A stretch of 64,000 bases of DNA from Bugula neritina (taxonomy: Eukaryota; Animalia; Bryozoa): positions 9,434,698-9,498,697 of the forward strand of contig OZ037765.1 of the NCBI GenBank assembly GCA_964035545.1. The letters are read 5' to 3'. The first letter of the stretch is position 1. Every line of letters starts with the position of its first letter. Both the position numbers and the translations under genes were made by a program. Positions 4,784-63,561 of this stretch are shown piece after piece. The notes below the pieces were generated by a model. It had not been told where the DNA came from. It was given only the letters and a program-made list of their open reading frames with translations, and did not search any database.

Positions 4784-11374
<6,591 letters not shown>

Positions 11375-11922
11375 TCTGCTGATGTGCTTCCATGTGCTAA
11401 CAGTCATATATATATCCTCTACAGGAAGTAATGCTTCTTAATGCTGTGATTTTTCAAACAATGCAATCTATTTATACAAACTTATTGAAACTAGTCTTAT
11501 ATTCAACCCAAGTATGCAGAGTAACACTTTTAATTTCAAATTCTATTTTTTAAAATTGGTTGTCTGCTATCTGTACAATTGCAAGTTACTGAAAAAATTA
11601 AAAATTTTTATACATTTATTTTCATTTTATATAGTATAATATTTTCACATACAAGATTATGCTCTAGTACCACGCTGCATAAAGCTTTGTAGAACTATTG
11701 ACATATTGGTTAAAAAAATAATTTTATTAATTTTTTTCCATTATTGCAAATTTGTATTGCATAAAATGTCTATTCAAATGTATTATGAAAGATAACATGT
11801 CTTGTGTTTAGCAATAAAGACAGCAATACTTGTTGATTGAAACAAGCTGTCATGATTCTGCGGAGCCGTGCATTTAACTCCCCACAAATATTCTGTCCAT
11901 AGCAACTATGGCTTACTTATCT

Positions 11923-14780
11923 TCACCTCTCAGTTCTTGTAGGCATCATTGAACCTTTCTTTGAATTTTGTTGCCTCTTCTTTTTTACATATGAGTCTAA
12001 TTGTCCTTTTTCTTTCAATTCTTTATATTTTTCTGCTAATACCAGCTTCTGTTTTTCAGCTAAAATATCCATAAGAAAGTGAGCTACTGTTTGATTATGC
12101 TTGACACTTATATTCAACAAACTGTTGAAGTATTCCAACAGTAAAAAACAAACTACAAATTTTACATAGCTACATATAAAGTTACAGTTTCATATAAATT
12201 GGCATACATCAAAGACTTAAATTGTTTATATTGGAGTTTTTGTTTAGTAAAAAAAGAATGCAAAATTATTCATTTTTCAACTATTTATGACATGCAAGCA
12301 ACTTGAACACATTTTAAAAAGTTTTGGAGTTTCTACAATTGGTTTAGTCTCAAGTTTAATAAAGGATCGTTATAATGCAAAACATCCAAAATCAAATTAT
12401 ATGTATTATATTGTTGGAAATAATTGTGTAACATTCTGGATATAAAAAAAATCTATCATTAATGAAGCGCACAATCTGCAGGTTAAATGGCTCTGCACAC
12501 CTTTTCAACATTCAATATATTTTGATTTTAGGCTCTGTATGTTAAATGTAAAATGCTAGTATATATGAACATTTCACTATGCTGTAGATGAAATAAATCT
12601 ACACTTGAATACTTTATACAACTGAACTCTGAAAACACAACAAATAAAAAGTTCTAGAACTTAAAATTCAGAAAATATCTAAAGTCTATAAACATAATGA
12701 AACTTACATGATTTCAAGAAAAACGGTTTTCTTCCTTCTTTAATGGCTTGCTTACGTTCTTCTTTTAATCTCTGCTCGACTGTATCATCAACAATAACTT
12801 TCTTTTTTGCTGCTTTTCGTTGCCCCTGCAAAAATTCATTAGCCAACAGCATAATATTCCATATTGATAAATAGTAAAAATCTGTGATAAATTAAAATTT
12901 ATCACAGATCTTTACATACATGCAATGAAATTGTTTTAAAAGCTATAGTTCTAATGTTTTAAAAATCTAACATATAATAAATGTCCAAATCATAAAGAGA
13001 AGTTAGATTGATTTTCCAAGTTGTTACCAATAGAGCCCTAAAAGAAAAATAATTGCACACCCTACATACCCATAATTGTAAAATACAAAACCATGCAGGC
13101 AAATTAATAACTTACCAATCTAGTGAGCATATCTTTGGCCCTTCTTCTTGTTTCCTCATCCAAACCTTCATCTTCAGCTATTTTACTCACAGCCTAAAGA
13201 GAACTTACTCATATATATTAACAAAAACTAGCAATTTAGTTTCGTGTAGAAAATGCATCTACAGATACACTGTTACCATACATGACTCACCTTAAATTCC
13301 TTGGCTTTTAGCTTGTCTATAAATTTATATGATCTTTTAAATAGTTGCTCATTAAATTCACCAGACAAGTCATCAAACCGTGGATCCCGAGTAACTCTCT
13401 TCTGTGATGCCAGCTTTGAGAGGTTGGGAGGTCGTTTAGAAGATACTTCGACAGGTCTAAATAAGACAAACATCTCAATGGTGTGTGGGTTTGGTGAGTC
13501 AACATTGACTAATGTACTCTGTTGGTTATTGATGCACTAGGAAGTTACGCAATCTAAAGGGCAGTTGTGATATTTACCCATAATTCCTGGATCTGTTTTT
13601 TGAGGAAGGTCCTGTATGCAACTTTTTCAACCCAAATTTCTTATTAAACCTAAAATTGAATAATTATTGAGATATTAGTAGAATTCTACTACAGCCGTCT
13701 AAATGGAAAAGAAATATTACTAGAATTTTACCACCATTACATGTGTTAACTATAGCACAACTTACTGTTTAATACCCAACTTATTGCGAAGGCTTTGAAC
13801 TTCTTCAAGAGACATGTCTGACAGGGCTAAAACAGAGAGACATAAGCTATAACACCATAGTTAAAAAACTAAATGATGCAACGAATCTAATGGATACCCA
13901 CTCAACAAATGCATATATTTGTTAGAACATATGGTTGTATTATAGCCATACCATAATCACCAACTTATATCTGAACTTGAAATAATACAGACTATTTTTT
14001 GTACACAACAGAACATAATAACAAGGACAAAAATAAATAGAAATAAGAACGGAGCTAAAGGGACAAACTATTACATTTCTAAAAATTGGGTTGAAGCAGA
14101 AAATACTTGAAGACATTAAATTACTTGCTATTCAGCTAATTGAAGTTAAAAGGCCTGATGTCATACAGCTGTTAGGTTTAAGCTTACAATAACTTTCATT
14201 TATATATACATTATGCTGGCAGTCAATTTTATGTTTTGTGACCTATTTACTGAAATACAAAGAAGAAATTAAAACTAAAACATGAGCATAAGTAGACAAG
14301 ATACAAACTGGTGCAGTTTTCACATATTCAAATATAAAAATCCTTTTCCACACACTTAATTTATAAAATTTAATATACATTTGCCATAACTTGACTAAAC
14401 TATTTTTAACAATTCTCAATTTTCTTTAAACATTAACAGTCGGTTTATTGAATTTAATATCTATTATAAATCAGGTAGCTATAAAAACCTGCCTGTACCA
14501 CACTGTGTTTATTATAATTATATTGAAAAAGGGTGTCCAAACCCAAATATTTGTGGCAGTTTAGTTATAGCAATTTATTTAAATTTTTGTAAGTTTCTAG
14601 TGCTTTCAGATATAAGAAACACTATTTTGCTGATTAATTTAGCAAAAGAATTATACAAAGCAAATACTGAAAAATAATTTTAGATAAGTAAATCTTGAAA
14701 AAATAGTAACAAAATACATTGAAAACAAGCTTACACTGATGACCACTGGTCCCTTCATCATCTTCTAATACACTTGCCAT
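11923..14780 (-). CDS. RRP36: Ribosomal RNA processing protein 36 homolog (DUF947)
   Basis: Exons 14780-14735, 13826-13766, 13649-13578, 13456-13291, ~13193-13116, ~12826-12708, 12059-11923. Motifs PVEVSSKRP, RDPRFDDLSGEFNEQLFKRSYKFI and KYKELKEKGQLDSYVKKKR are typical of Rrp36. Confidence 0.88.
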
Positions 14781-15634
14781 TCTACCTAGAAGTGGGGAAA
14801 ACAAAACCAGTAGTCAGCTAGGTACACCATCTTCAATAAAATATTTGCTATTTGGCAATAACTAATAACTATATCAACCGGTTTTTTTTTAATTTTAAAA
14901 GTGACAGTGAAGACACAATTCATCTGCTTAAAATTTAGCAGAAAAAATTTGGTCACTTTTTAGTTTACAGAACATACTCCAGTAAATATTTAGTAGCAAG
15001 TCACATTTTTAAAAATGGAAACACGTGAGTTTAGAATTTACATTAATGCAATATTTTGGCAATGTGTATGTTATTTTATCAAGCAATAAATAGCATTCAA
15101 TAGTGTATTCAACTACCAAAACATTATACTAGAATAACTAGGTGATATACTGATGTCAAAAATATTGTATATGGGCCTATAGTTTAATGGCAGATACAAT
15201 TACATTTAAACAAACAATGGTACAGCAATGTGTGCACTTAAATTTAAAAACACTAATCGTTCTATGATAAGAACTTACAACCTTATAACAAACAAACCGC
15301 TACATAACTGCAGAAAATTGATGCCATGAACAGTTGAATAATATTAATGATGAACGCCTTCCAGTTTGAGTTTCTATGAGAAAATTTTAACAAATTTTAA
15401 TTAGGCATTTGCACAGTTCATTGATTTTCAGAACGAAGATAAAAATTAGATTTATGATATACGGCTATACCAATATTTCATTAGTATTTTAATTTGATTT
15501 TGTATAACTAAGTATTAAGATTCAAGTTTAATAATAATTGTAAGTGTATTAACTTTAAGTACTAGCAGTATCACTACTACTTATTAGTGCAACTAATGTA
15601 ATAGTAATACTAATAATACTATTAGTATTACTAT

Positions 15635-15986
15635 TGTAGTAATTTGTGCAATTACTGAGCGTGAGTTATTTACTTGCGTATAGTTAGCTGGTTATTCTGC
15701 TAGCAATTACTAGGGTAGCTGTCGAGTAATTATATTTATTATCCACAATAAAGCATAAAACAAACATCACATCAAATTATCCTATACATCAGTCAACTAC
15801 TAACACATGTTACTACTTCAAGCCTCCGCTTACAACAACGTGATATAATGTTAATAGCCCGGGAAGTGTCACGTGAATCGGAAGCATATCTTCCGGAGCT
15901 GCTAATTGGTTGCTACATAAGGGCTAAGTATTCCAAGAGTAGGGAGAGGGCGATTCCCGTATTTGTACTTTGCACTACTCACTACA
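15635..15986 (-). repeat. 3' LTR
   Basis: Same sequence as 20552-20903 (offset 4917); preceded on the minus strand by a G-rich PPT. Confidence 0.95.
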
Positions 15987-15996
15987 CCGCCCCCCC
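15987..15996 (-). promoter_or_regulatory. Polypurine tract
   Basis: Minus strand G-run followed by CGG directly abutting the 3' LTR TGTAGT. Confidence 0.8.
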
Positions 15997-16278
15997 AGCA
16001 GAAAGCCCTACTTTCTGATAACACAATAAAAAAACACATAATGAAAAACTATACAATAATCCAAGAAGAAAAACATACATAAGTAAACCCACAAAGAGGA
16101 AGAAAAGAAATAGTTGCACGACAACATTTATGTACAGAAGAAAACAGGGTGATCGATCACACACATCTAGTCAGCTATTAAGAGAGAGGGTGCTTACCAG
16201 CACACGGGCCAATGTCGGAGCACTCGTCACTTCCCAGACGAAATACAGCTCTACGAAGGGTGCCTATCCCAGGCATAC

Positions 16279-17336
16279 TCATTGGGTGGACTCTGACTCT
16301 TGTAGCGAGCGTGCTCTGTGTCGAGCCTGTCGGGCACGTAGCCGCCTCTTCAGTCGCCCCACTGAGTCCTTCAACTGGTATAGACCTGTCGTCGTATCCA
16401 GCAAGTCAGGGGCAAGTTGTGTGAACTCGGCTTGGAGTCTTACAAGCCGCTCTTCTACATTAGCCAACTGGCTAGGCCTTGGCGGGGTTGTAGTAGTCTC
16501 TGTTAGAGGGGGTATTGTTGTTTCTTCTACTTCTGGGGTGTTGCTAGGGTTGACGGGGGTAGGAGACGGGCCCTGAACCATAGGGGACTTATGGCGGGCG
16601 GATAGCAGCAGTACGTGGAACCCTGACGCTAGTGCGGCCAGGGTGATAGCCTTCCTGATGACTGGCTTGATGGCATCCAGGTATAGGGGGAAACTGTCCT
16701 CATCAACAGTGTGGTTCTCTCCGGCGAAGCAACTCAGCTTATGTACTGTCACGGGATACGGGTAGACGTCGTGGAACCCGCAGGGACAGAAGTGGAGTAG
16801 GAAATGGGCGTCTACATGTAAACGCAGGGAGCGGTGTGACGGGCACTCCTCAAAGCAGACCTGGCAGGTTCGGTGGGGTCCACTGGGTCCCCAGGCTTCC
16901 TCAATTCTCCTTTCCGTCGTGGGTGACACCCAACGGTGTCGTCGACGGAGCACCACGGGTATGCCATTCTCCATTACAGGCTCCTCTTCCATAGGCAGAG
17001 AGGTTGGCTGGTCCCGTGACCGGGAGGTGGTCACTCGAGTGTGATCTGAAAGAGTAGCAGTGTTAAAGATTATACACTGAGGTACCGTCGGCGTGTACAG
17101 CCTGACCGGTACTCTGTTCAGTTACACTCGTGAGATTCAGGCTAATGAATAGTTGATGGAGAACACACTCGCTATGACAGATTATTTAAAATCAAAGTCG
17201 ACGTGTATTCCCACCACTGTTTATCATTATCGAATCTCCAGCTCGCTAGCTAGTGTAGCTAAAGCTGACTGATGCAGTCTAGTTATCGTACCAAAAACAT
17301 AATTAACTCACCCTTCGATCCAGAATAGTAAGACAT
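16279..17336 (-). CDS. Accessory ORF3 of the LTR element (about 263 aa, two exons): C2H2 + C2HC zinc fingers, Pro/Thr linker, coiled coil, Arg-rich tail
   Basis: Exon 1 17336-17312 (caaaATG, MSYYSGSK) ending AAGG|GTGAGT; intron 17311-17046 ending ctctttcAG; exon 2 17045-16279 joins in frame (G|AT=Asp) to the 251-aa ORF. CQVC-x12-H-x3-H and CPC-x12-H-x3-C. Confidence 0.75.
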
Positions 17337-17556
17337 TTTGGAATGAGAGCGGTAAATGATTACTGTTTACTGGCACGTCTACTCTTGACTGCATCAACAT
17401 AGGAAAAGACCGGACAGCGTGGTTGTGAAACGTGACTAGGGCTTTTCACTTCCAGTGGATGAATCTCGTGTGAGATTCCGCCGAGGCAAAAGTTGAGATT
17501 TTTGTGGTGATCACAACTCCCACGGCTCTTTGCCTGTTTTCCCATGCGAGGCCTCT

Positions 17557-19719
17557 CTAAACTTTCGTACTGCCGCTTATACCGCGGTCACGTACACAGT
17601 CTCTGAGACACGCTGGAAGTTGCCTAGTGTGTGGTCCTGGTCCTACGTTGGTATCTCCTTGCGGAGCCCCTCCCACGGGGGGTTTTTGCACTTCCGGACC
17701 TGTTTCTGGTTCCGGAAGTGGTGGTGATGGCAGGCTTGACGTTGGGGGCGGTGGGCGCACTTTCAAGGACGGAAGTGGCCTTCCTCGCCTCGCCAAGTCT
17801 TCCTGACGTGTCATGGAGGTGTTTCCGGCCAGGTTGACAGTCTCCGCCTGCCGAGACCTTCTCGCACAATGCGTCTGCCGCCCCGCTTCACCAGGGAGAC
17901 GGCTATGCTTGTTGGTCTGGCAGACTTTGCACCGTCTCACTCTGCGCCGGATATCCCGTTCCATGTTGGGCCAGTACCACCGGAGTTGTAGCTTGGTGAC
18001 CACCCCTTGGACTCCTCCGTGAGTCTCCTCGTGGGTGTCTTGTATCAACTTCCGGCGGATGGCAACTGGGCAGACAACCCTCTTCTTGGCTGGCTGTCTG
18101 CTGTTGGCAACCAAGGTCATGGTCAGCAGACCATCTGGCCCGACCCGCAGAGAGCTCCAACGTTGACAGTACAGCCGTAACTCGGCGCATCCCTGTCGCC
18201 GTTGTTTACTACTGGGTCGTCGCCCTTCCTGTTTCGCTCGGTACACGTCGGCTACCACCCCAGGAAGGCATTCCTGGAGCTTCGGCAGCTCCCTAACGTT
18301 ACCAGCCCATACAGGTTTGGCGCGGAGGCTCTGGACAGCCTCCGGGGGCGTGTCAGCCCTCTGTTGGAGTAGCTGAGCAGGGGCGGTCCTCGCCGCCCGT
18401 GGTACCTCACGACAACCTGCTCTATTTAGGCGGGCTCCGTGGTCTGTGTGGCGGAATGCCTCACTGTACCCATGTGGCAACCTAGCCATAGCCTGGCGCT
18501 TTCCGTTGCCTGTGCAGCCACGTGTCCCTGGAGGAGGGGAGGCGTGGGTTGGGACGGTCCTCCGCCCTCGAGACGGGCTCTGCTGAGGACCTTCCGTCGT
18601 AGCTCCCGACGACGGCCCAATGGCTTCCTCCTGGACAGGATGGAAGCGACCCAGCATGGATCTGGGTGGTAGGTCTACTGTCTCTGAGAAGGGGTTGACA
18701 CACTGCACTGAGATCTCTCCTTGTCCCGTAAGCCGGCTAAAGCTATGGGCAAGTTGGACTCTCGAGTGCGTACTTTCGACAACTCCCAACTTAGAGGTTT
18801 GGCCACCGTCTACCTTGCAGCGGACGGTAGCCCGGGAGTGGCCTGGTATAGTACAGCTCCGTACTACCTGCACTGCTCCCGCTAGAGGACGACCAAACTT
18901 ATCGACACAAGCGAGCTCCTTGTCGCCCATGATCATCGCAGATTTACTGAAATCGATGCGACATCCGTGTCGATGTAAGAATGGCATCCCGAGGATGGCA
19001 TCCTCGTTGAGCTGCCCGACGATAAACGTCTCTTGGATGGCCTGGTTACGGACGTAACCAGTTAGCTCAATAATGCCGTAGAAGGGAATGCACGACCCGT
19101 CTGCCAGGGTGCCATGATCCCCCTCATACGGTGCCAACCCGTCCTTGACCTTAGCGCTGAGGGTGTCAAAGAATTGACGGCTAAGGAGGTTGGTGGTGCA
19201 GCCTGAGTCCAGGAGGAAGTTGGCAGGCTTGCCGGCTAGCTTTCCTGGTAGGAAGTAGCTACTTCCGTGTGGCTGCAGTCGTGTGTGCCGTGGTTGCACC
19301 TCCCTCGCTGTGGGTCGAGGGGTCCACGGTTGGCGGCGACTATTGACCAGCTGCCGAGGTTGGGGCGGTACGCCTTGTGGCGCCTGTACCGTTTCCCTCG
19401 CAGGCTCTGTGGTCAACCGTCTGCCGGCTCCGTGTTGGTGCTGGAGTGGCGTAGAGGACCCAGGCGGCGAGTGGCTTGAGCCTACTTGCCGCGGGGGTCG
19501 CCACTTCACAGCATCTCCGCGCGGCGCCCAGCGGGGCGACAGACGCGCGGGCCTCCCTGGGTGATTCACAGACGGCCCGCAGGAGGTGGGAACATCTGCG
19601 GGCCGTGGTAGTTTAACCCTTGTGGGAGCTGAGGGCAGTTCCCCTGGAAATGTCCTGGCCTTCCGCATCCCCAGCAGAAGTGGTGCCCCATGCCTGGTGA
19701 TTGTACCTGCGGCCCGCAA
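17557..19719 (-). CDS. Internally deleted pol in the -1 frame: aspartic protease, RT N-terminal remnant, integrase HHCC finger; no RT/RNase H/DDE core
   Basis: FLLDSGCTTNLL (D at 19209-19207) and DAILGMPFL; HEETHGG...WYWPNM...CKVC (18033-17920); no YxDD, RNase H or DDE motifs in the 720-codon open frame. Confidence 0.88.
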   Translation of the reverse strand: MRAAGTITRHGAPLLLGMRKARTFPGELPSAPTRVKLPRPADVPTSCGPSVNHPGRPARLSPRWAPRGDAVKWRPPRQVGSSHSPPGSSTPLQHQHGAGRRLTTEPARETVQAPQGVPPQPRQLVNSRRQPWTPRPTAREVQPRHTRLQPHGSSYFLPGKLAGKPANFLLDSGCTTNLLSRQFFDTLSAKVKDGLAPYEGDHGTLADGSCIPFYGIIELTGYVRNQAIQETFIVGQLNEDAILGMPFLHRHGCRIDFSKSAMIMGDKELACVDKFGRPLAGAVQVVRSCTIPGHSRATVRCKVDGGQTSKLGVVESTHSRVQLAHSFSRLTGQGEISVQCVNPFSETVDLPPRSMLGRFHPVQEEAIGPSSGATTEGPQQSPSRGRRTVPTHASPPPGTRGCTGNGKRQAMARLPHGYSEAFRHTDHGARLNRAGCREVPRAARTAPAQLLQQRADTPPEAVQSLRAKPVWAGNVRELPKLQECLPGVVADVYRAKQEGRRPSSKQRRQGCAELRLYCQRWSSLRVGPDGLLTMTLVANSRQPAKKRVVCPVAIRRKLIQDTHEETHGGVQGVVTKLQLRWYWPNMERDIRRRVRRCKVCQTNKHSRLPGEAGRQTHCARRSRQAETVNLAGNTSMTRQEDLARRGRPLPSLKVRPPPPTSSLPSPPLPEPETGPEVQKPPVGGAPQGDTNVGPGPHTRQLPACLRDCVRDRGISGSTKV

Positions 19720-20516
19720 GGCTCACGGGCAGTATCTACCTGGCTTGGGGAAGCTAATGTGGTGACCAGTTTATCTAGCATGTCAGTCATCTGTGCGACT
19801 TTTGACGCTAGTGACATCTGGTTCACATTAGCCACCGCGGAGGGTTCCGCGTTTGGTTCGGCGTGAGCAGTAGTGTGCTCCGTGGTCACCTGGCGGGAGG
19901 CCACGCGGTTGCGGTGCATATGAGTCGCCAAGAGGTAGGCTTCTCCCACCGCAAGTGCATCTTCGACTGTGGTGACTCCCCTCGCTTGGAGTTGATGGTG
20001 GAGCCCCAAGTCGTTGATGGACTGCACGAAGGCATCATAAGTATACCTCTCACGGTGTACTGGAGGCAGATCGCGGATTGCGATCTGCGCTAGTGGGTAC
20101 ACCGTGGCAGCGTGCTCTTCTAGCGACGTGTGAGGATCACGCCGCATCCTTTGTAGACGGGCCCGCGCATCTATGGGAGAGATGCCAAAACGGGCCCGCA
20201 GAGAAGCAAAGATTCCGTCTATGTCAGGTCCCGCTCCGTACGGCTTAGCTTTGCCCGTCAGCGCCATCCTGAGCTTGAGCAACGCCACCCTTGGTGGCCA
20301 CTCTGCAATCTCCATCACATCTTGGAATTCTTGGATAAACTGCTCCACTGCTTCTTCGCCTGTGAAGGTGGGCGCCTTCAGCCGGTATCTGTCTTCACCA
20401 TGCTCTCTAAGAATTCTCACTTCTTCATCTAACACCACTGGTTCCACAGGTATATCAACATTATCTCTCTCACCTTCATTCAGTGGAATGGGTAGCTCCG
20501 TGCCGTCTTCTGCCAT
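19566..20516 (-). CDS. gag: Gag (316 aa): Ty3/Gypsy capsid plus CCHC zinc knuckle
   Basis: ATG at 20516, 17 nt after the PBS; capsid-like FTGEEAVEQFIQEF...WPPRVALLKLRMALTGKAK...LRARFG; zinc knuckle CWGCGRPGHFQGNC (CX2CX4HX4C). Confidence 0.9.
   Translation of the reverse strand: MAEDGTELPIPLNEGERDNVDIPVEPVVLDEEVRILREHGEDRYRLKAPTFTGEEAVEQFIQEFQDVMEIAEWPPRVALLKLRMALTGKAKPYGAGPDIDGIFASLRARFGISPIDARARLQRMRRDPHTSLEEHAATVYPLAQIAIRDLPPVHRERYTYDAFVQSINDLGLHHQLQARGVTTVEDALAVGEAYLLATHMHRNRVASRQVTTEHTTAHAEPNAEPSAVANVNQMSLASKVAQMTDMLDKLVTTLASPSQVDTAREPCGPQVQSPGMGHHFCWGCGRPGHFQGNCPQLPQGLNYHGPQMFPPPAGRL
19572..19617 (-). promoter_or_regulatory. Programmed -1 ribosomal frameshift signal
   Basis: G_UUA_AAC in the gag frame (19617-19611), 4-nt spacer, perfect 11-bp stem ACGGCCCGCAG/CTGCGGGCCGT (19606-19596 with 19582-19572); the pol ORF is exactly -1 to gag. 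Confidence 0.8.
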
Positions 20517-20532
20517 GACTGCTATACGCAAG

Positions 20533-20550
20533 ATCCCACCGCTGCCACCA
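20533..20550 (-). promoter_or_regulatory. Primer binding site complementary to tRNA-Leu 3' end
   Basis: Minus strand TGGTGGCAGCGGTGGGAT, 1 nt inside the 5' LTR; complement of ...ATCCCACCGCTGCCA-CCA, the 3' end of metazoan tRNA-Leu(AAG/TAG). Confidence 0.9.
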
Positions 20551-20551
20551 C

Positions 20552-20903
20552 TGTAGTAATTTGTGCAATTACTGAGCGTGAGTTATTTACTTGCGTATAG
20601 TTAGCTGGTTATTCTGCTAGCAATTACTAGGGTAGCTGTCGAGTAATTATATTTATTATCCACAATAAAGCATAAAACAAACATCACATCAAATTATCCT
20701 ATACATCAGTCAACTACTAACACATGTTACTACTTCAAGCCTCCGCTTACAACAACGTGATATAATGTTAATAGCCCGGGAAGTGTCACGTGAATCGGAA
20801 GCATATCTTCCGGAGCTGCTAATTGGTTGCTACATAAGGGCTAAGTATTCCAAGAGTAGGGAGAGGGCGATTCCCGTATTTGTACTTTGCACTACTCACT
20901 ACA
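20552..20903 (-). repeat. 5' LTR
   Basis: TG...CA termini with 6-bp inverted ends; minus-strand AATAAA at 20657-20652; E-box GTCACGTGA and inverted CGGAAG/CTTCCG pair in U3; adjacent to PBS. Confidence 0.95.
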
Positions 20904-20910
20904 CTATTAG

Positions 20911-21605
20911 TAGGTAAATCAAATATCCTTTAGCCCCGCCTACTTTCACAAAATCGAGTGGCATCGATAGCCCGAGCAAAATCTGGAAAGCGTTCAGTAC
21001 AGAAAACCTGTTTAGACCTCTTTTTGATTTGCTAATAACTTTTAGTATAGTTCATGCAGAGAAAATTTGAAAATATCATTGTGTAGCAGAGCCTTATATT
21101 AAACTGATTTTATGATCACGAACCCCTTCAAATCCTCTGCTCCTTGTGGTAAGGAGTGTTAAAATATAGTAAAAATCCATATTTTTCAATCAATAATTTA
21201 AGTTATAATTTGTGACAGATATGTAAAATGAATATATTTTAAAACCATCTCTAAAAGTTTTCTATCAATTGAAGTATTAATATGATGATATTATGCTTTA
21301 GCTATTTAGTTATAATGATTTAAGTCGAAGGCTATGCTCGAGACTTGTAGATTTTTGAGATAGCTATTACGCTATTGTTGCTAAACGCATGAAAATAAGT
21401 GGGTTCGCTAAAGCATTCATGGCGTGAAGATTTAATTGCTCGGGTAACTGGTTGAACGTCATAAATTTACAAGCTAATATCTGCACTTGTAGTTGATCTT
21501 GCCTGTTGAAAGTGCATTGAAGTTCACTCAAATTTTTTTGTCTACCGATCTAACCTAAAATTAAACTGTAAAGCGTTACTTGAAAATTATCATTTGATGT
21601 ACCTA
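20911..21605. mobile_element. Putative non-autonomous DNA transposon (MITE-like)
   Basis: Inverted termini TAGGTAAATCAAAT (20911-20924) and ATTTGATGTACCTA (21592-21605), 13/14 match, possible TA TSD; interrupts a TAG/TAC-rich tract. Confidence 0.5.
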
Positions 21606-24600: not shown

Positions 24601-25420
24601 TGTTTTTAGGTGCCAGGTACCTGGTTAAATTGTGTATTAATTATGGTTGGGTGGGATGGATTGACTTGGTGGGATCTTTTACCAATTTGTCTTTTTACAG
24701 TTTTCAAATTTAATCTTTATATTTCATCTTTCTCCGCCATATCCTGATCGGGTGGCGGCAAGTTTAATCTTTATATTTGAAATAATATAGCTATCTTTTA
24801 CAACTTGAAGTATGTCTCCATTGGACATTTTCATGAAGGCAAATTCCTAAACTCTTTGGCCAATCAGAAGATTTAAAAATCATCTGTCTGTGCAGGTGTT
24901 GCTGTATATGTAAAAAAAGGTGTCATTTTTAAGGTTAGAAAGTTCTAGCAATGTGGACAGATATATTATACAGTTTTTAACTTAACAATTAATATGGTTC
25001 TAGCATACTAAGCATAGTGTATCCTTGTTATGGCTTTTCTAAATGTTAGAGAAAACTTTTTTGCAATCCTAAATAGTTTTTTTTTCTAGTTTTGTATAGA
25101 TAGCTAAATTTAATCGTTTGTGGTAAGGTATAGGAGATCAAATGATGAAAATTGATGTGAATGTTATTAGCCAGAATTTATAAAGTTGTGTTACAATATG
25201 CAAGCATCTATAGCTGTTATGATGCCATTAACTGAAATTATATGCTGGTTGTAATCAAAGCTCTATTTAGAAGTTGTCAATGTAAGCACTGTGCTGAGTT
25301 GTTTTGATCAATTGACCCAATCAATGAGACTCTGCATATATTAGTATTGATTTAAAGTTGCATTTGATTTGCACACGTAAGTGTAGCCATTTTTCCTGGG
25401 TTTCAACTGTTGACTGATAA

Positions 25421-25638
25421 AAAAACTCGCGCAAGTTTATAGTCGCTATCCCTGTGAGAAACCTCTGATGGAAAGGGGTTTTGTTAGAACGGGCTAAGGA
25501 CTTGTTCAAATGAGGCACAGAAGCAATTATGACTGGGTGCTTTTCCTAACATCACCAATGGCCTTTGTCGGGTTCGAACCCACGACTTCGTGTTCACAAA
25601 GCGAACGCTTTAACCCCTAGACCACGGCTGCTTCCTCG
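25421..25638 (-). mobile_element. tRNA-derived SINE (Meta-domain-like core), copy 1
   Basis: Minus strand A box TGGTCTAGGGG, B box GGTTCGAACCC, T-run tail; exact 15-bp TSD ACTGTTGACTGATAA (25406-25420 and 25639-25653); homologous to 38312-38534. Confidence 0.88.
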
Positions 25639-29254: not shown

Positions 29255-31897
29255 TTATCTAACAAAGCTCCCGGAAAATCCAATTCCCACATACATAGCT
29301 GCTGAAGTATCTTCGCCTTTGATGATTACTGGATTAGAGAACAATGTCCAATACTTATCTTGATAAAAAACTACAAAATATTCGTAGATTTTACTTAAGC
29401 TGTACCATCCAATGGAGAGCTATAACCTTGGTAAAAATATAAAACTTATTAGTTTTGATGCAAGGTCAGTCAAGTGGTAATTGGGAATGTAAAATTTGCT
29501 TTGTGGTGCTATGGTCCCTCATCATAGAGATCAAACAGTGTCCATCTGTGACCAAGTTAATCATCACTAACTCCCAAATAGTGCAATTTTGATTATCTAA
29601 TTGTACAATTAACAGCAAATTAATTTTGCATACATTGCCTATTAGGCAACCATCAAAACACAATAGTCACCTATTTACTGTTATAAGGGACAATTTTGCA
29701 AAAAAAAGTTTTACATAACTTCATATCTCTAACTACATTTTGTATAGTATAGAATTTATGAATCGGTTATACACCTCGAATAAATTGAAAGTAGTTTAAA
29801 CACAACATGCAATAATCACACAGCCTTACCAAGATCACCAGCTTCAACTGTTACTTTCATTTCCTTACATGAGTGGCTGCAGTCACGATGAGGGAGCAGA
29901 GTAAGTTGTCTTATGCCTTGAACTTGCTGATACCAGGAAGTGGCGAATCCTCCTATTGGCTGCAGTAGTGGCAGCATAAACTGTTACAGCATAACTATGC
30001 AGGTAGCTGGAGAGTAATTATTTGATACGTACAAAAGAATTGGGCTATACAATACGTGTGATTGGGTCATAAAGGGAAACACCTATCTTACCAATTCATG
30101 TGTACCAGCTAGAGGACCGTCAAAATAAATCCTTTTCAGCAGAGAAACTTCAAAAGCAGAAGTAAGAAAACTTGGACGGGGAAAGAGTTTTCTGATGGCT
30201 TGTGAGGTTGGGACGCTGTTGGTCTCCCACATTAGAAAACCTGTTTGTCTTTTAAAACTCATGAGTGCTGTGTCATCATATTTATTAAAGAAATCAGAAA
30301 TGTTGTAGACACCATCTAGATTGGTGTGGAGAGTATTTGCACCTTCAAGAATGAACTTGTTTTCGTTATCTGAATACATACTTCGTAGAACATCCAAAGT
30401 TATATTTGGTGCTGAATATCTCTAACAAATACAAAACATAGAGAGTTGAGTATTGGTTTAAACTTGAAGGATTATGTAGTAGTTGTGTTATCTTTCACAA
30501 AATATAAAAAAGAAAATATCTTAAATTTTGCATAATTATCCTCCATCTATAAGTTCGAGCTATATCTCACTTTTTACTTGCAATTCCTTTGTAGTTACAC
30601 ATTATCAAGAAAGCACATGCTGTAACTACATACAAATTATTGTTGAATATGTAACATAGCACTGGAATAATTAATATCCAGCGCATTGCCTTGTTGTGTC
30701 AAAACTTAGACTCTAAGAGTTCATGAACATCACTCACTTTAATGATGAAAGGATGAATATCATGAGTGTGTTGTCTCCGCTGGTCATCACTGTAATTAGT
30801 GAGATCAACAAATCCGGATTTATTGCTACAAAGATGACAATCTTCAACTGGGTCCAAAAAGAATGGATTCGTAACCAAACAACTCGCACCATAAAAACCT
30901 AAAACAAAGTTTATTCAACATTAAATATTGTTATAGTTTTGTGGGATACTACAATTGTGGGTTATGAGTGTGTGTTGCAATGCTAGAACATAGCTCTTTG
31001 CGTGTGAATTAGAGAGAGAACTGAGCTTGTAATTGTAGTAGGTCGAGTATATTTATGACACTAAGAAATAAAGTTAGTCCACCAGCTAAGTGTGTCTGGG
31101 CGTTTGTGAGTCCTGATTATAAAGCCTAGCTTGATGTTTATTGGTCTGCAGGTTCCCAGAGTGAGGCTGCAACAGACCGTTGCAAACCAACCCCCCTCCC
31201 CCCCCCCCCCCTATGGCAATCACAATATGTAGAATGATGACTTATAGCTACCAAGAATTGCACATAAATTATAGTTCCATATTTCTGAATTTTTTAAAAG
31301 ATTAAGTAGCTCTGTTATTATTAAATAAATATTAACATCATTTCTGAGAGAAAATGTACTCTTTTTAATAGCACATCGATTATTTCACACTAATTAGTGA
31401 GTATTTCTAGAAACTGCTAATGCTAAAAAGGTAGACGAATTTTTGACACAAATTTGCACAGTCTAATTTTTTATTTTGTAATTATTATGCTGTGAATTAG
31501 CACTTGTGTACATACCTTGCATATGAAACTTATCAGTCAGTGGTTTTAGCATAATTCTAGCAAATCTCATCGAAGGATAAATCCATGGAGCCATAAGGTT
31601 TTCTACCTGCCCTTCAATTTCAGGCGAAAATAGTGCACAGGTAGTCAAAATGAAATAAAGCAGAATCAAAACTGCAGGAACAACTGCCAAACATTTGAGA
31701 AGAAACCAAGTCCAAAAACCAACTTTAGTCAAAACAAACTGCCAGCCTCTTCCTTGATTTTTACTTCTGTCTTCATCTTGCAGTTGAATCACCTCCTTAA
31801 TGCACTCCTTTATTTCCGTGTCACTCATGCCCCATGATCGGCCTAATCCTACTATTTTTTCAAGCTTTGATTCCAAACTATTCAGTTTGTCTTCCAT
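29255..31897 (-). CDS. C6orf89/BRAP-like single-TM protein, copy A
   Basis: Exons 31897-31516, 30898-30738, 30421-30092, 29959-29830, 29370-29255, open throughout. TM segment, YPSMRFARIMLKP, CLVTNPFF..DCHLC, FPRPSFL, SWYQQVQG..PHRDCSHSC..GDLVFYQDKYW. Family assignment is from recalled motif resemblance only. Confidence 0.6.
30929..31224 (+). mobile_element. Solo LTR in intron 1 of copy A
   Basis: TGTTAT...ATCACA termini, 4-bp TSD ATAT (30925-30928 and 31225-31228), AATAAA 31067-31072; the paralogous intron in copy B (~41550-41580) shows the empty site. Confidence 0.75.
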
Positions 31898-32081
31898 TTT
31901 TGACTTTAGGTCCTGCAAGCACAAAGCACCAAACATATGTTAGCATTGAAAAAGTCAGTAGTCAAAACACCTCATTATTAATTTCAAATAAATAATATGT
32001 AGTGAGAAAATATTTTTCTAAACTAAAAGTAAATGTGCATATAAAATAAAAACGAAAAAATTGGATTGAGACTTAAAAAAT

Positions 32082-38075: not shown

Positions 38076-39578
38076 ATGGAGCTACCCATAGTTAAAATGC
38101 TCATCCTACTGTTGCTATTTTCTGGAACGTTTATTTTCTCTTTACTTCCTGTTCCGTTGATGAAAGCAGCAACAAACACTGAGAATACAAGGCGTAAAAA
38201 TATGCTTGACAGATGTATCAGGTAGCTATTAACTGTAGGCCTATAATAACAGTGTGAAGCTATTTTTAGTTGAGATGAGAGTTTGTATAAATTATTAGAA
38301 TATTAACATTAGGGAGCAGCTGTGGTCTAGGGGTTAGACTGTTTGCTTAGTGAACACGAAGTCATGGGTGTCGAACCCCGACAAAAGCCATTGGTGATGT
38401 TGGGAAGAGTATCTAGTCATAATTGCTCCTGTGCCTCATCTGAACTAATGCTCAGCCCGATCTAACAAAAACCCCTTCCATCAGAAGTTTTCTAGCGGGA
38501 TAGCGATTATAAACTTGCGCGAGTTTTTTGTTGCTAGAATATTACCACTAACTCAAAATTTGAATGTTAACATGACTAACTTGACTAACTAATGAGGTCT
38601 GATATTCCTTTCAGTTTCCTGAGCTGCTTTGCTGCTGGAGTTTTCCTTGGTACATGCCTACTAGATTTATACCCAGAGGTACAAACAAAATTACATTCTG
38701 CAGTTATGTCGTACATTTCAAAGGACAGCAAGTTTGCCTGCTATCCCTTTGGAGAAGCTGTTATGGTTGCCGGGTTTTTCCTTGTGTTAATAGTCGAGCA
38801 AATGGTGCTAGCATTGAAAGAGATGAGTGTAGAGAGCAGCACTCCAGCCAACCAAAAAGATCAGCCTAGAAGTAGTAGTCAGAGTAAAAGAGTGACTTAT
38901 GATTCTATCAACAGTACAACAAATGAATGCACTGAACATGAAAGACTGTTGGGTAGTAGCTCACATAACAACACACAGTCTAGAAGTCGATTAGGTAGCT
39001 TGTCAAGCATAAGGAGCATCGAGTCAAGGAATAACCTTCACAGTCAGTCTGATGATCAACATGAACATTCAATGCATTATGATCCCAGCTCACACTCACC
39101 CGTAAGGTCATTGATTATGCTGGCAGCATTATCGTTGCACTCTGTGTTTGAAGGCCTTGCAGTTGGTCTCCAAGACACAGAAGAGGGCGTGTTGTCCATT
39201 TTTGGAGCCCTGATACTTCATAAATGCATAATTGCCTTTAGTATTGGGCTTAATCTTGTGCAAAGCAAATTAAGAGTCAAAGCAATAATTGTATCTAATG
39301 CAGTGTTCTGTTTTGCTAGTCCTTTGGGCATAGCCATAGGAATTTTAATTACTGATTTCAATTCTGATGCTGCCACATCACAACTAGTCAATGGAATCCT
39401 TCAAGGTTTAGCATGTGGTACATTCTTATATGTAACCTTTTTTGAAGTTTTACCTCATGAATTTAACAAACCTAAAGATAGACTACTTAAGTTGCTTTTT
39501 GTTATTGTGGGATTTGCATTTGTAAATGGTGTGCTCTTCTTAGAAATGTCTCTTTCAAAAGAGCCTGGCTGTGATTAA
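38076..39578 (+). CDS. ZIP/SLC39 zinc transporter (ZIP1/2/3 type), copy A, about 369 aa
   Basis: Exons 38076-38221 and 38615-39578. FLSCFAAGVFLGTCLLDL, ALSLHSVFEGLAVG, ILHKCIIAFSIG, LQGLACGTFLYVTFFEVLPHE. Confidence 0.93.
38312..38534 (+). mobile_element. tRNA-derived SINE, copy 2, in the ZIP-A intron
   Basis: Homologous to 25421-25638; degenerate 16-bp TSD TAGAATATTAACATTA/TAGAATATTACCACTA (38296-38311 and 38535-38550). Confidence 0.85.
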
Positions 39579-39888: not shown

Positions 39889-42277
39889 TTATAAAGTAAA
39901 GCTCCCAGAAAATCCAATTCCCACATCTTTAGCAGCTGAAGTACCTTTGCCTTTGATGATCTCTGGACTAGAGAACAATGTCCAAAACTGATCTTGATAA
40001 AAAACTACAAAATATGTGTAGACTTTACTTCAGCTGTACTGTCCAATACAGTTACTTAAGTAAAAATGTATAACTTATAATTTTTGATGCAAGCTATTCA
40101 GTCAGGCGACAATTAGGAATGTAAGATTTACTTAGTGGTGCTATGGTCCCTCATCATGGAGATTAAGCAGTGTTCATCTGAATTCTCTAATTAAAGAATT
40201 AGCATCAAATGAACTTGCTTATGTTGTGTATTAGGCAGTCATCAAAACATTTTGCCCCCCACTTACTGTTACACTGGACAATTTCCACAGTAATTTGCTA
40301 AACTATGTATAAATATGCATTGATACCTAAAAACTACATTTTTGTAGTATTAAATAGGTTGTACACCTTCCTAAAAAATTGAAAGTAGTTTAAACACACT
40401 ATGCACTAATAACAGAGCCTTACCAAGATCACCAGCTTCAACTGTTACTTTCATTTCCTCACACGAGTCGCTGCAGTCACGATGAGGGACCAGAGTAAGT
40501 TGTCTTATGCCTTGGACTTGCTGATACCAGGAAGTGGCGAATCCTCCTATTGGCTGCAATAGTGGCAGCATGAACTGTTACAGCATAACTATGCAGGTAG
40601 CTGAAGAGTAATTATTTGATATGTGCAAAAGAATTACATTGTAATGCATGTGATTGGGTCCTGAATGAAAAAAGCATGTATATCGTAACACTTATCTTAC
40701 CAATTCATGTGTACCAGCTAGAGGACCGTCAACATAAATCCTTTTCAGCAGAGAAACTTCAGAAGCAGAGGTAAGAAAACTTGGACGTGGAAAGACCTTC
40801 CTGATGGCTTGTGAGGTTGGGACGCTGTTGGTCTCCCACATTAGAAAACCTGTTTGTCTTTTAAAACTCATGAGTGCTGTGTCATCATATTTATTAAAGA
40901 AATCAGAAATGTTGTAGACACCATCTAGATTGGTGTGGAGAGTATTTGCACTTTCAAGAATGAACTTGTTTTCGTTATTTGAATACATACTTCGTAGAAC
41001 ATCCAAAGTTACATTCGGTGCTGAATATCTCTAATAAACACAAAACATAGAAGGCTTGAGCATTTATTTCAACTTGTAGGATTATGTAGTAGTTGTGCTC
41101 TCTTCCATCAAATTTCTTTATATCTTTTCGCATAATGAAAAAAAATAAATCACTTCAAATTTTACATAATGATCTGTCTATATCTCACTTGTTATTTGGT
41201 TTTTTTGAATTTACACATTTACAAGAACTGCTGTAACACACTGTAACTGCATACAACTTATTGTTGAATATGTAAGATAACACTGGATTAATTAATATCC
41301 AGCGCATCGCCTTGTTGTGACAAAACTTAGACTCTAAGAGTACATGAACCACATGAATATGACTCACTTTAATGATGAAAGGATGAATATCTCGAGCATG
41401 TTGTCTCCGCCGAGCTTCAACCTGACCGGTGAGATCAGCAAATCGAGATTTAGTAGTACAAAGATGGCAATCTTCAATTGAGTCCAAAAAGAATGGATTT
41501 GCAACCAGACAATCTGCTGCATATAAACCTAAAGCATAGTTTATTTAACTGCAAATACATAAAATGATGGATTATAGCTCTTGAAAGCGTAGCACATAGA
41601 ATTTAGTTTTACTAACCATTTCTTAATTTTTTTACAACTAAAAAATTATACCATGATGAAATAAATACTGACATCATTTCTGCGGTAAAATACTCTTTCT
41701 AATAGCAAACTATTCATCACAAGCTAATTATTAAGCATTTCCAGAAAAAAAGTTAAAAAAGTGGACAGTGTAGACTGTAGAGTCATATATCATAAGGCCC
41801 ATGCTTTTTTCAGACAAATAAATTTTATGAATTGCACGTTTTAGTTGCTACCCTGTAACTATAAAGCAGAGAATTAGCACTTGTGTACACACCTTGCACG
41901 CGAAACTTGTCAGCCAGTGGTTTCAGCATAATTCTAGCAAATCTCATCGAAGGATAAATCCATGGATTTACAATTTTGCCAACCTGCGCTTCAATCTCAG
42001 GTGATGCTGCTGCACAGGTAGTCAAAATGAAATAAAACAAAATTAAAACTGAAAGAATTACTGCCAAAAATTTGACAAGAAACCAAGTCCAAAAGCCAGC
42101 TTTAGTCAAAACCAACTGCCAGACTCTTTCTTCTTGATTTTTACTTCTGTCCTCATCTTGCAGTTGAATCACCTCTTTAATGCACTCCTTTATTTCCGTG
42201 TCACTCATGCCCCATGATCGGCCTAATCCTACTATTTTTTCCAGCTTTGATTCCAAACTATTCAGTTTGCCTTCCAT
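39889..42277 (-). CDS. C6orf89/BRAP-like protein, copy B
   Basis: Exons 42277-41893, 41528-41368, 41030-40701, 40553-40424, 40004-39889; exons 2-5 are the same lengths as in copy A (161/330/130/116) and the frame is open. Confidence 0.6.
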
Positions 42278-43109
42278 TTTGACTTTAGGTCCTGCAAGCA
42301 CACAACACCAAATACATGTAGTATTCTAAACTCTTGATCATTCATTTTAAATATATACGTAGTGACCATATTTCTTTAAAAAAAACTAAAAGTAGATCAG
42401 GGTGACATCAAAACTAAAAATGATAAAATCCAAGCTATAAATAGCTTCTGTAGAAATTGTCTAAATGAATTTTTTATACCTTGATGATTACTATTAGTAT
42501 TACTATTACTATTAGACAATACTAATAGTAATAATAATAGTAATACTAATAGTAATACTACTACTAGTAATAATAATAGTAATACTAATAGTAATATTAA
42601 TAAATAATAACTATGTCTATAGCCATAGGCATAGCTATAACTATAAGTATAACTATAACTATAAATAATAACATTAATGAGTAATTTCATTGTGATTGTC
42701 TAATTACTATTAGTATTAGTAATACTAATAGTAATTACTACTAATGAGTAATCACTATTAGTATTAGTATTACTATTACTATTAGTATTACTATTAGTAT
42801 TAGTAAACGTTTAGAAACATTTTTAAATATTAATAATCAAGCAATGCGGATTAGAATCAAAATAATTAACAGACTAAGAGTGTACAACTAAAATCAATAG
42901 TAACTGAAAGAGTACAAGAGTACGTACCGGTGTACTCAGAGTCAGTAGAACTACTACTAGATTCTTAAACTCAGATATGGTTTGACTTTGAAGCTAACTT
43001 TCACTTTGAGCAAGCGGAAACTCCAAGGCGGAAGTCTGGCCGTTTCATAATTTTTTTCAGAGGGCATCTTCAATCGCGCAGTGCAAGCGTTTCAGTTTGG
43101 ATTAAAAAG

Positions 43110-45704
<2,595 letters not shown>

Positions 45705-47774: not shown

Positions 47775-49071
47775 ATGGACCTCTCTATCACGAAACTGCT
47801 TATTTTAATATTGTTATTTTTTGGCACATTTATTTTCTCTCTACTTCCTATTCCACTTATGAAAGCAGCAACTAGCGCGCAAAATGAAAGGCGAAAACAA
47901 ATTATGGAAAGACTCATCAGGTACCTACTAAAATAATATTTATTGTTAAGGAAAAGTGACAATAAATTTTATATAGATGATCTATTCAGAATCACTGAAT
48001 TTTACGTAGCTAATTCTTACTATAAGCCTGAAAATTTACAGTAAATACACATTTACTCACCATTTGAACAAATTTGATAACCAATAAGCTAATAGTAAGT
48101 TGCGGTCATTTTCTCTTTGTAGTTTTTTAAGCTGCTTTGCTGCTGGTGTTTTTCTTGGCACATGTCTACTAGATTTATACCCAGAAGTGCAGAGTGAACT
48201 AACAAGCGCAGTTGCACAATACCTATCAACGGATAGCAAGTTCTTCTGCTATCCATTTGGAGAAGCTGTTATGGTTGCTGGCTTTTTTCTTGTACTAATA
48301 ATAGAACAAATGGTATTGGCTTTTAAGGAAAACTCAGACTACACTCTTGAAAATTTGAATAATGGCCAATGTGGAAGTAATGGTTCCCAAAGAAATACCT
48401 ATGGTTCGATGAGAAATACTCATGATGAACCAACGGAAACTGATAGACTGCTAGGAAGTGGTCTACAAGAAGATGCATCTTTAAGTCAACCAAATAGCAT
48501 CTCTAGTATAGAGAGACCTGCAACTTTAGAAAACAATCAAATGTTCTCCAATGCTGATAATCAACATGAACATAATTTCAACTCACACTCACCTATAAAG
48601 TCATTGATTATGCTGGCAGCATTATCGTTGCACTCTGTGTTTGAAGGTCTTGCAGTTGGTCTCCAGCGCACAGAAGGGGGTGTGTTGTCCATTTTTGGAG
48701 CCCTGATACTTCACAAATGCATAATTGCCTTCAGTATTGGGCTTAATCTTGTGCAAAGCAAATTGGCAGTAAAAGCCACTATTGTTTCAAATGCAATATT
48801 TTGTTTTGCTAGTCCTTTGGGCATAGCCATAGGAATTTTAATCACTGAGCTCAACTCTGATACTGACTCATCACTATTGGTCAATGGAATCCTTCAAGGT
48901 TTAGCTTGTGGTACATTCTTATATGTCACTTTTTTTGAAGTTTTACCCAATGAATTCAACAATCCAAAGGATCGACTGTTTAAATTACTGTTTGTTCTTG
49001 TGGGATTTGCTGTTGTAAATGGGGTGATATTTTTAGAATTAGCTCTTTCCAATGAGACTGGATGTGATTAA
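47775..49071 (+). CDS. ZIP/SLC39 zinc transporter, copy B, about 364 aa
   Basis: Exons 47775-47920 (146 nt, as in copy A) and 48123-49071; same TM4/TM5 metal-site motifs. Confidence 0.93.

Positions 49072-49545: not shown

Positions 49546-63561
<14,016 letters not shown>

Follow-up and report, generated by a model that had tools for sequence, protein, structure and literature searches.

A Gypsy-type LTR retrotransposon in the window (the whole stretch of 64,000 nucleotides of Bugula neritina DNA that was analysed) carries a third gene, ORF3, which indirect evidence indicates is made from spliced RNA and which encodes a conserved two-finger domain followed by a predicted coiled coil. The best class of explanation for ORF3 is a nuclear trans-regulator, and we tentatively favour a nuclear DNA-binding activator of its own element, comparable to Tas of the foamy viruses. 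The gene is under constraint, has relatives tied to Gag or Pol sequence, and is kept in an element that has no reverse transcriptase of its own.

Structure of the element

The insertion, judged by its sequence to be of Gypsy type, is 5,269 bp long (20903-15635, minus strand), carries ORF3 and has a GC content of 48-61% per kilobase, as against ~32% in the host. Its features are collected in Table 1. The primer-binding site resembles what we take to be the 3' end of tRNA-Leu. ORF2 overlaps gag in the -1 frame, and the heptamer in the overlap presumably belongs with the known slippery sites, which it resembles. The Gag knuckle matches Pfam zf-CCHC below the cut-off (E 0.15). Passages of PMC12440569 give TG...CA LTRs, a 4-6 bp target-site duplication, a primer-binding site and a polypurine tract as criteria for Ty3/Gypsy (Metaviridae) elements; all of these are present here, together with a Gag knuckle, and the pol order is seen in full-length relatives (P0139, P0140, P0146 and P0148), which have PR-RT-RH-IN with GPY/F. 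Since the two LTRs are identical, with TG/CA ends and ATAG at both flanks, the insertion is recent.

Table 1. Coordinates of the ORF3-carrying element and its features, in window positions.
Feature	Position	Strand	Remarks
5' LTR	20552..20903	-	352 bp, TG...CA, 100% identical to 3' LTR; AATAAA at 20657
3' LTR	15635..15986	-	352 bp
Target-site duplication ATAG, 4-bp	20904..20907	-	second copy 15631-15634
Primer-binding site	20533..20550	-	after 5' LTR; from sequence
Polypurine tract, G-rich	15987..15996	-	preceded by T-rich 3' untranslated stretch; 3' LTR adjoins
gag, 316 aa	19566..20516	-	CX2CX4HX4C knuckle at its end
Candidate -1 frameshift heptamer	19611..19617	-	in gag/ORF2 overlap
ORF2, 721 codons open	17557..19722	-	protease, spacer, integrase zinc-binding (H2C2) domain
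Second splice donor, gag codon 15	20468..20476	-	AAG/GTGAGA, phase 1; intron starts at 20473
Candidate internal start region for mini-exon	17337..17393	-	two TCAKTY initiator-like words, 17359 and 17346
ORF3 exon 1	17312..17336	-	25 nt, caaaATG...AAGG, 8 codons + 1 nt
ORF3 intron	17046..17311	-	266 nt, GT-AG, GTGAGT...TTTCAG
ORF3 exon 2	16279..17045	-	common to both donors
Conserved compact domain, ~125 aa	16576..16971	-	Trp-helix, two fingers, VD motif, three helices
C2H2 finger (finger 1)	16866-16804	-	in compact domain
C2HC finger (finger 2)	16788-16729	-	in compact domain
C-terminal long helix, predicted coiled coil	16285..16470	-	Arg-rich patch at its end

ORF2 has neither RT and RNase H nor the integrase core: Pfam searches found no RVT_1, RT_RNaseH or rve match in it, and it matches P0139, the closest of the long relatives, at residues 92-319 and 931-1104 only (52% and 41% identity, respectively). 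The element is thus a non-autonomous one of Gypsy type, and RT and integrase would be borrowed from an autonomous relative. The ORF2 frame is unbroken across the sites of the missing RT/RNase H and integrase core. It retains the integrase zinc-binding domain and the terminal motif, and this remnant may have a role.

Other features of the window

Outside the insertion the window contains two single-ORF ZIP zinc-transporter genes (38589-39578 and 48088-49071, plus strand; Pfam Zip E 2e-65 and 9e-60), which sit in a tandem duplication with a spacing of ~9.5-10.6 kb, and an exon of a phospholipid-translocating P-type ATPase (49546-50055, minus strand; PhoLip_ATPase_C E 1e-10). Related ORFs at 31463-31939 and 41825-42325, which are repeats 85% alike, have no clear Pfam match. 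Inverted repeats of 346 nt, 90% complementary (43208-43553 and 45275-45620), flank a nearly pure AT microsatellite of 1.7 kb, and the pair resembles a foldback or MITE-type element. A second inverted pair of 153 nt, 86% complementary and 12.8 kb apart (25420-25572 and 38377-38529), is probably a dispersed repeat.

Splicing of ORF3

An earlier note on this DNA had proposed that a 25-nt first exon joins in frame across a 266-nt GT-AG intron, and the coordinates and a single open frame agree with it: spliced ORF3 is 792 nt long, has a single stop, at its end, and encodes 263 aa, while in unspliced RNA the exon-1 ATG reads 17 codons. The 251-aa ORF of that note is a real frame, but it starts at a GTG (17034), and the first ATG of exon 2 (16992) gives 237 aa. 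Only two GT sites in the 5,269-nt element match MAG/GTRAGT at 8 or more of 9 positions, at 17311 and at 20473. The latter, in gag, is also in frame with exon 2, and its predicted product has 269 aa including 14 Gag residues; each of the two strong donors follows an ATG, is phase 1 and leads in frame into the acceptor at 17045. Seven further AG sites pass the same pyrimidine filter as this acceptor, which is thus not unique by that filter alone. An internal start for the mini-exon is suggested by the three ATGs farther upstream of exon 1, which are out of frame, and by the TCAKTY words, which we take as an initiator-like motif: two of the three in the element fall within 25 nt of the exon-1 ATG, a proximity noticed post hoc. 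A palindrome with 7-bp arms lies upstream of exon 1 (17478-17461, minus strand), with one half nearly copied in the intron (17136-17126); hairpins of this kind are many in the element.

Traces of splicing were found in host DNA. In the sequencing run used, each of the 30 bins of an 18-kb host stretch is covered, with depths that mostly lie at 60-140, and this even cover identifies the run as genomic DNA. One contig of the run skips exactly 266 nt, 17046-17311 (17045 joined to 17312), with the ends CT..AC on the plus strand. Reverse transcription of spliced RNA leaves DNA from which a GT-AG intron is precisely missing. The joint comes from a single contig, with 29 letters on its short side and a min_likeness of 85, and joints with fewer than 30 letters on one side or a likeness of 85 are less safe, and less reliable in metagenomes; given its exact boundaries, we argue that it is real. 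Intron-less copies in genomic DNA indicate that spliced RNA is sometimes packaged, so that survival of the intron alone does not call for a Rev-like factor. The intron-less DNA may stem from one event, amplified afterwards. Most copies apparently keep the intron, because the depth of the intron-less contig (843) is small compared with that of the neighbouring bins (7,060-16,321; element bins overall 7,060 to 38,954), depth not being copy number. Among 15 of the 18 joints, those listed for this run, no gag-donor joint (20474/17045) was seen. The 14 further joints listed (15600-21000) leave out 71-619 nt; a pair of GT and AG ends is seen in none of them, and they represent internally deleted or diverged family copies.

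Homologous proteins carry related traces. The first 14 residues of P0010 are 86% identical to the start of Gag (20516-20475), and the protein then goes on at the acceptor residue; this join, seen at the protein level, occurs in one of 259 proteins tested. Together with the exact intron loss in DNA it provides indirect evidence that ORF3 is made from spliced element RNA. No peptide like that of exon 1 was found at the start of a homologue (best score 25/42 among the 259 proteins), which is a weak test because gene callers choose other starts. The acceptor position could be located by pattern in 39 of 137 close relatives (near-duplicates included), and in 37 of these 39 the acceptor residues are, at the protein level, S-D, L-D or S-G, compatible with YAG/; the other two are P0010 and one stray match. 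P0003 reads through the intron region in a frame that opens one codon past the TGA in the donor hexamer, over a similar length. It matches the window intron only in pieces, over three frames, so the intron is conserved in position and non-coding. No DNA loci of the homologues were recovered from metagenome, viral or genome contigs.

The ORF3 protein

Every motif that had been picked out from the protein is present: C-x2-C-x12-H-x3-H, C-x-C-x12-H-x3-C, LRRRHRW, RLKRRLRARQARHRAR and a Leu heptad region. The protein likewise has no signal peptide or TM segment and is not an env, as had been stated; its peak 19-residue hydropathy is 1.56, within the folded domain, and among 54 close relatives three reach 1.6 and none reaches 1.9. 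The compact domain is modelled with high confidence (132-residue region, alignment A2; pLDDT 93, pTM 0.86), while the full-length model is poor (pLDDT 59) and a PDB search with it came back empty. Fold searches with the domain gave no match at E <= 0.001 in PDB or BFVD and none at Z >= 5, and the best scaffold matches do not exceed Z 4.3 among 48,161 chains, a lack of match that does not amount to proof of a new fold. Against Pfam and NCBIfam the window ORF3 protein has no match at cut-off, and the ESM Atlas returned generic C2H2 or unnamed clusters only.

Finger 1 is a classical C2H2 finger (helix 46-57 in the model), and its profile matches the C2H2 fingers of SALL/ZBTB DNA-binding factors (best E 6.7e-6, SALL3). 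The finger pair aligns weakly to the DNA-bound tandem fingers of Kaiso, SALL4, ZBTB38 and CTCF (Z 3.2-3.9; rmsd 2.8-3.6 A over 51-59 residues). ORF3 thus resembles SALL, ZBTB/Kaiso and CTCF in the pattern of finger 1 and the geometry of the pair, but differs from them in its C-x-C...H...C finger 2, in a hydrophobic 5-residue linker and in the flanking helical scaffold. A TGEKP-like linker is absent between the fingers, which are not a Krueppel-type tandem array. In the window subfamily the finger-2 helix reads Y-P-Y-P-V-T-V, without basic residues, and positions +3 and +6 of finger 1 are A/S and L, respectively; with the hydrophobic linker, these residues make canonical DNA reading doubtful here. 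In distant members the recognition helices are basic, with R/K at +2 (86%) and R at +3 (71%) in finger 1, and R-D (70%) and R/K at +6 (57%) in finger 2.

The Leu heptad region, read earlier as part of a Rev-like protein, is real, but it forms a long predicted coiled coil, and NES-like patterns occur only in the folded core. A homodimer prediction for the coil scored 0.02, without a usable model. In a set of 68 sequences, 24 distant members were of sufficient length for the coil test, and 18 of them have a C-terminal heptad coil, compared with 3% of shuffles; the N-terminus is acidic in 25 of 40, a count that has no control. The N-terminus of the window ORF3 is short, polar and weakly acidic (net -2 in 25 residues).

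Conservation of ORF3 and its place in the Gypsy lineage

A word-indexed search found 134 relatives, with identities of 50-96% among the 120 listed, and a profile of 54 relatives run against 1.84 billion representatives gave 129 matches, at least two of which are coiled-coil noise (P0256 and P0273; 65 scanned). Three of the proteins found (P0167, P0213 and P0244) contain two copies of the finger domain. Alignment A2 consists of 95 hand-picked sequences (the window, 25 close and 69 distant relatives), leaves out fragments and two-domain or very long matches, and is too diverse for pattern scans. Its invariant or near-invariant columns are the seven zinc ligands; the Trp, a Thr, the VD motif and one Pro are also kept. 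Among the 69 distant relatives the ligands are kept in 94-100%, the last Cys in 74%. Of LRRRHRW only the Trp is kept in them (86%), the Arg positions being found in 10-41%.

Close relatives are 76% identical in the fingers, 78% in the coil and 77% in the basic tail, as against 29% in the linker. In the DNA run, for which 40 of 397 variants were listed, six of the eight listed ORF3 variants are synonymous (35% expected, P 0.026), compared with 6 of 10 in ORF2 and 2 of 7 in gag; both non-synonymous ORF3 changes have a depth equal to that of the intron-less contig. The domain-wise identity, the synonymous excess and the retention of the zinc ligands bear out the earlier expectation that ORF3 is conserved and not neutral. 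Nor is it a recognisable fragment of a host gene, having no Pfam/NCBIfam match at cut-off and relatives that are tied to Gag or Pol sequence; some distant matches could be host genes. The possibility that ORF3 is a passenger or captured host fragment, functionless for the element, is accordingly very remote: many database relatives are truncated or frameshifted, as decaying copies would be, but the domain-wise conservation, synonymous excess, confident fold, working splice sites and presence in autonomous relatives at 27-29% identity all speak against it.

Three of 17 long RT-bearing relatives (P0146, P0148 and P0152; profile E 5e-9 to 2e-8, in a small set) carry the domain in frame behind the integrase, at the C-terminus of Pol, and a linker and a helical tail come after it. 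The window ORF2 ends at the terminal motif that, judged by eye, precedes the finger domain in these fusions, and the position of ORF3 is in this sense shared with them. Two other relatives join the domain to an ORF2-like tail (P0093) or to a post-protease segment (P0259). Taken together, the Pol fusions, these two joins and the shared position argue that the gene is old in the lineage and was not recently captured by this copy. Of 122 representative matches, 79 resemble the Pol fusions, mostly through the finger domain itself. When 7,987 candidates of 840-2,395 aa were scored with a profile for fused forms of greater length, none emerged; three are known, so the search is insensitive.

In the literature reached, which included few subscription journals, the domain family, the arrangement of two donors and the retention of such a gene in an enzyme-less element are not described. 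ORF3 may already be annotated in Repbase or Dfam.

Possible functions of ORF3

On the reading that we tentatively favour, ORF3 would first be made, independently of the LTR, from a weak internal promoter situated shortly before the 25-nt exon. The protein would oligomerise through its coil, bind element DNA through the finger domain, and switch on or de-silence the LTR. LTR transcripts would then be divided between unspliced genomic RNA (for gag, protease and packaging) and RNA spliced from the gag donor, which would give more ORF3. There would thus be two routes to ORF3, from the LTR by way of the gag donor or from a separate ATG exon, and low basal expression would be followed by LTR activation. 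A Tas-like activator is consistent with the finger pair, the coil, the often acidic N-terminus and a putative internal promoter near the 3' end, and ORF3 was likely kept in an enzyme-less element because its version would serve the element's own sequence. According to passages of PMC3185757, Tas (Bel1) is a DNA-binding activator that is made from an internal promoter and then activates the LTR, and its gene, like ORF3, is an accessory gene near the 3' end. Foamy viruses differ in having env, and the internal promoter and DNA binding are established for them and predicted here. Against a Tas-like activator, a comparison of the LTR with the putative internal promoter found shared words no more often than in shuffles, and none of them is enriched. 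C2H2 fingers also bind RNA and protein. The gag-sharing splice and the structured RNA of the unspliced-only region, described below, fit a role in export equally well.

Such a role, in which ORF3 would act like Rev or Cer1 CERV by binding structured unspliced RNA and licensing its nuclear export or stability, is possible but on the whole unlikely. Tiles of 266 nt were folded with 20 shuffles each; within the gag-donor intron (20473-17046, minus strand) 10 of 13 fold at z -2.5 or lower, as against none of six outside it (exon 2, 3' UTR and LTRs), a contrast noticed post hoc. This pattern would suit an export factor, as would the apparent retention of the intron in most copies and the conservation of the Arg-rich tail in close relatives, but the antisense strand folds equally well in several tiles, and gag or ORF2 tiles are no less structured than the 266-nt intron (z -4.47). 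As a candidate RRE the intron was rejected, because it is not singled out among tiles that fold equally well. The structured unspliced-only RNA could equally serve packaging. The loss of the Arg patch before the Trp in distant relatives, the confinement of NES-like patterns to the folded core and the occurrence of intron-less copies as DNA also weigh against export, and feedback of this kind needs no separate ATG mini-exon.

The gene logic is nevertheless that of cerv. As described in excerpts of PMC10309623, CERV of the C. elegans Gypsy-type element Cer1 is made from a spliced mRNA that shares exons with gag and is needed for export of genomic RNA; like ORF3 it is a non-env protein with an N-terminus common with Gag, a leucine zipper, which in ORF3 would correspond to an oligomerising coil, and a Cys finger, and it is regulatory. 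It differs in its length of 517 aa, in five exons that all lie in the gag region, and in a C4 finger and a G-like domain, and no homologues outside nematodes are reported there. ORF3, with 263 or 269 aa, lies after pol, pairs a C2H2 with a C2HC finger and has an additional, internal ATG exon. Searches of ORF3 in Pfam and in the profile and fold libraries gave no match to CERV or Rev. HIV Rev and Tat are likewise products of spliced regulatory genes and have basic patches, whereas the conserved core of ORF3 is a folded ~125-aa two-finger domain and not an Arg-rich motif with an export signal (Rev is described in parts of PMC10309623 and PMC7264820). Of the Rev/Tat-like architecture first assigned to ORF3, a spliced, conserved, non-env third gene stands, while the Arg patch before the Trp is not conserved in distant relatives.

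ORF3 might instead be a competition or copy-number factor, its coil pairing with a helper's ORF3 or Gag and redirecting or dampening the helper, or might block a host silencing protein. Constraint on ORF3 in a non-autonomous element would fit this, as would the hydrophobic finger-2 surface of the window subfamily alongside a strongly conserved coil, but we regard it as improbable.

Another reading, which we consider quite improbable, is a chromatin or DNA tether for integration that would here be provided to the integrase of the helper as a protein of its own. The in-frame domain after the integrase in three Pols favours it, and precedents exist in the chromodomain of chromoviruses and the MBD of CopiaMBD (passages of PMC12440569 and PMC6673714, respectively). 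However, the other 14 of the 17 long Pols are without an in-frame domain, the gene calls give stand-alone proteins for most of the family, and the element is without an integrase core. In the fused forms, moreover, the domain may have a start of its own, with an acidic segment, as in the stand-alone P0237, so that the Pol fusion may be an open frame and not a functional polyprotein.

Comparison with other accessory genes and significance

Extra genes between pol and the 3' LTR are known from bdelloid rotifers (ORF3s; PMC5408684) and from plants (aORFs such as GENE23 of Grande; PMC7264820). By the accounts in parts of these papers they are typically spliced or have their own promoter, and some products are nuclear; unlike the ORF3 studied here, they are env-like, GDSL, DEDDy or antisense, and neither paper uses 'zinc' or 'finger' in its main text. 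The statement in the earlier note that no Gypsy gene of this form has been described was therefore too strong: with spliced ORF3s of LTR retrotransposons, and with CERV as a tested regulator, the kind of gene is already known.

In the literature reviewed, Cer1 CERV is the sole accessory protein of a Gypsy element whose regulatory role has been tested. ORF3 appears to be a second Gypsy accessory solution, apparently unrelated to CERV, and its domain combines a confident fold and more than 100 distinct relatives with the lack of any Pfam model. A broader proposal, which we consider doubtful as a whole, is that an old and wide animal Gypsy lineage encodes its own sequence-specific zinc-finger transcription factor, from a domain family not yet described, in an independent foamy-virus-like circuit of two promoters without env, with a first expression from the internal promoter and re-expression by splicing from gag, and that a non-autonomous offshoot, having lost RT and integrase, retained the gene and re-tuned one finger for a circuit of its own. 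The retention of ORF3 together with Gag and protease in an enzyme-less element shows what a parasite of retrotransposons cannot borrow, and intron-less genomic copies are a natural read-out of the packaging of spliced RNA. Animals silence retroelements with C2H2 proteins; if a finger protein encoded by an element acts for that element, this mode of host silencing is turned around.
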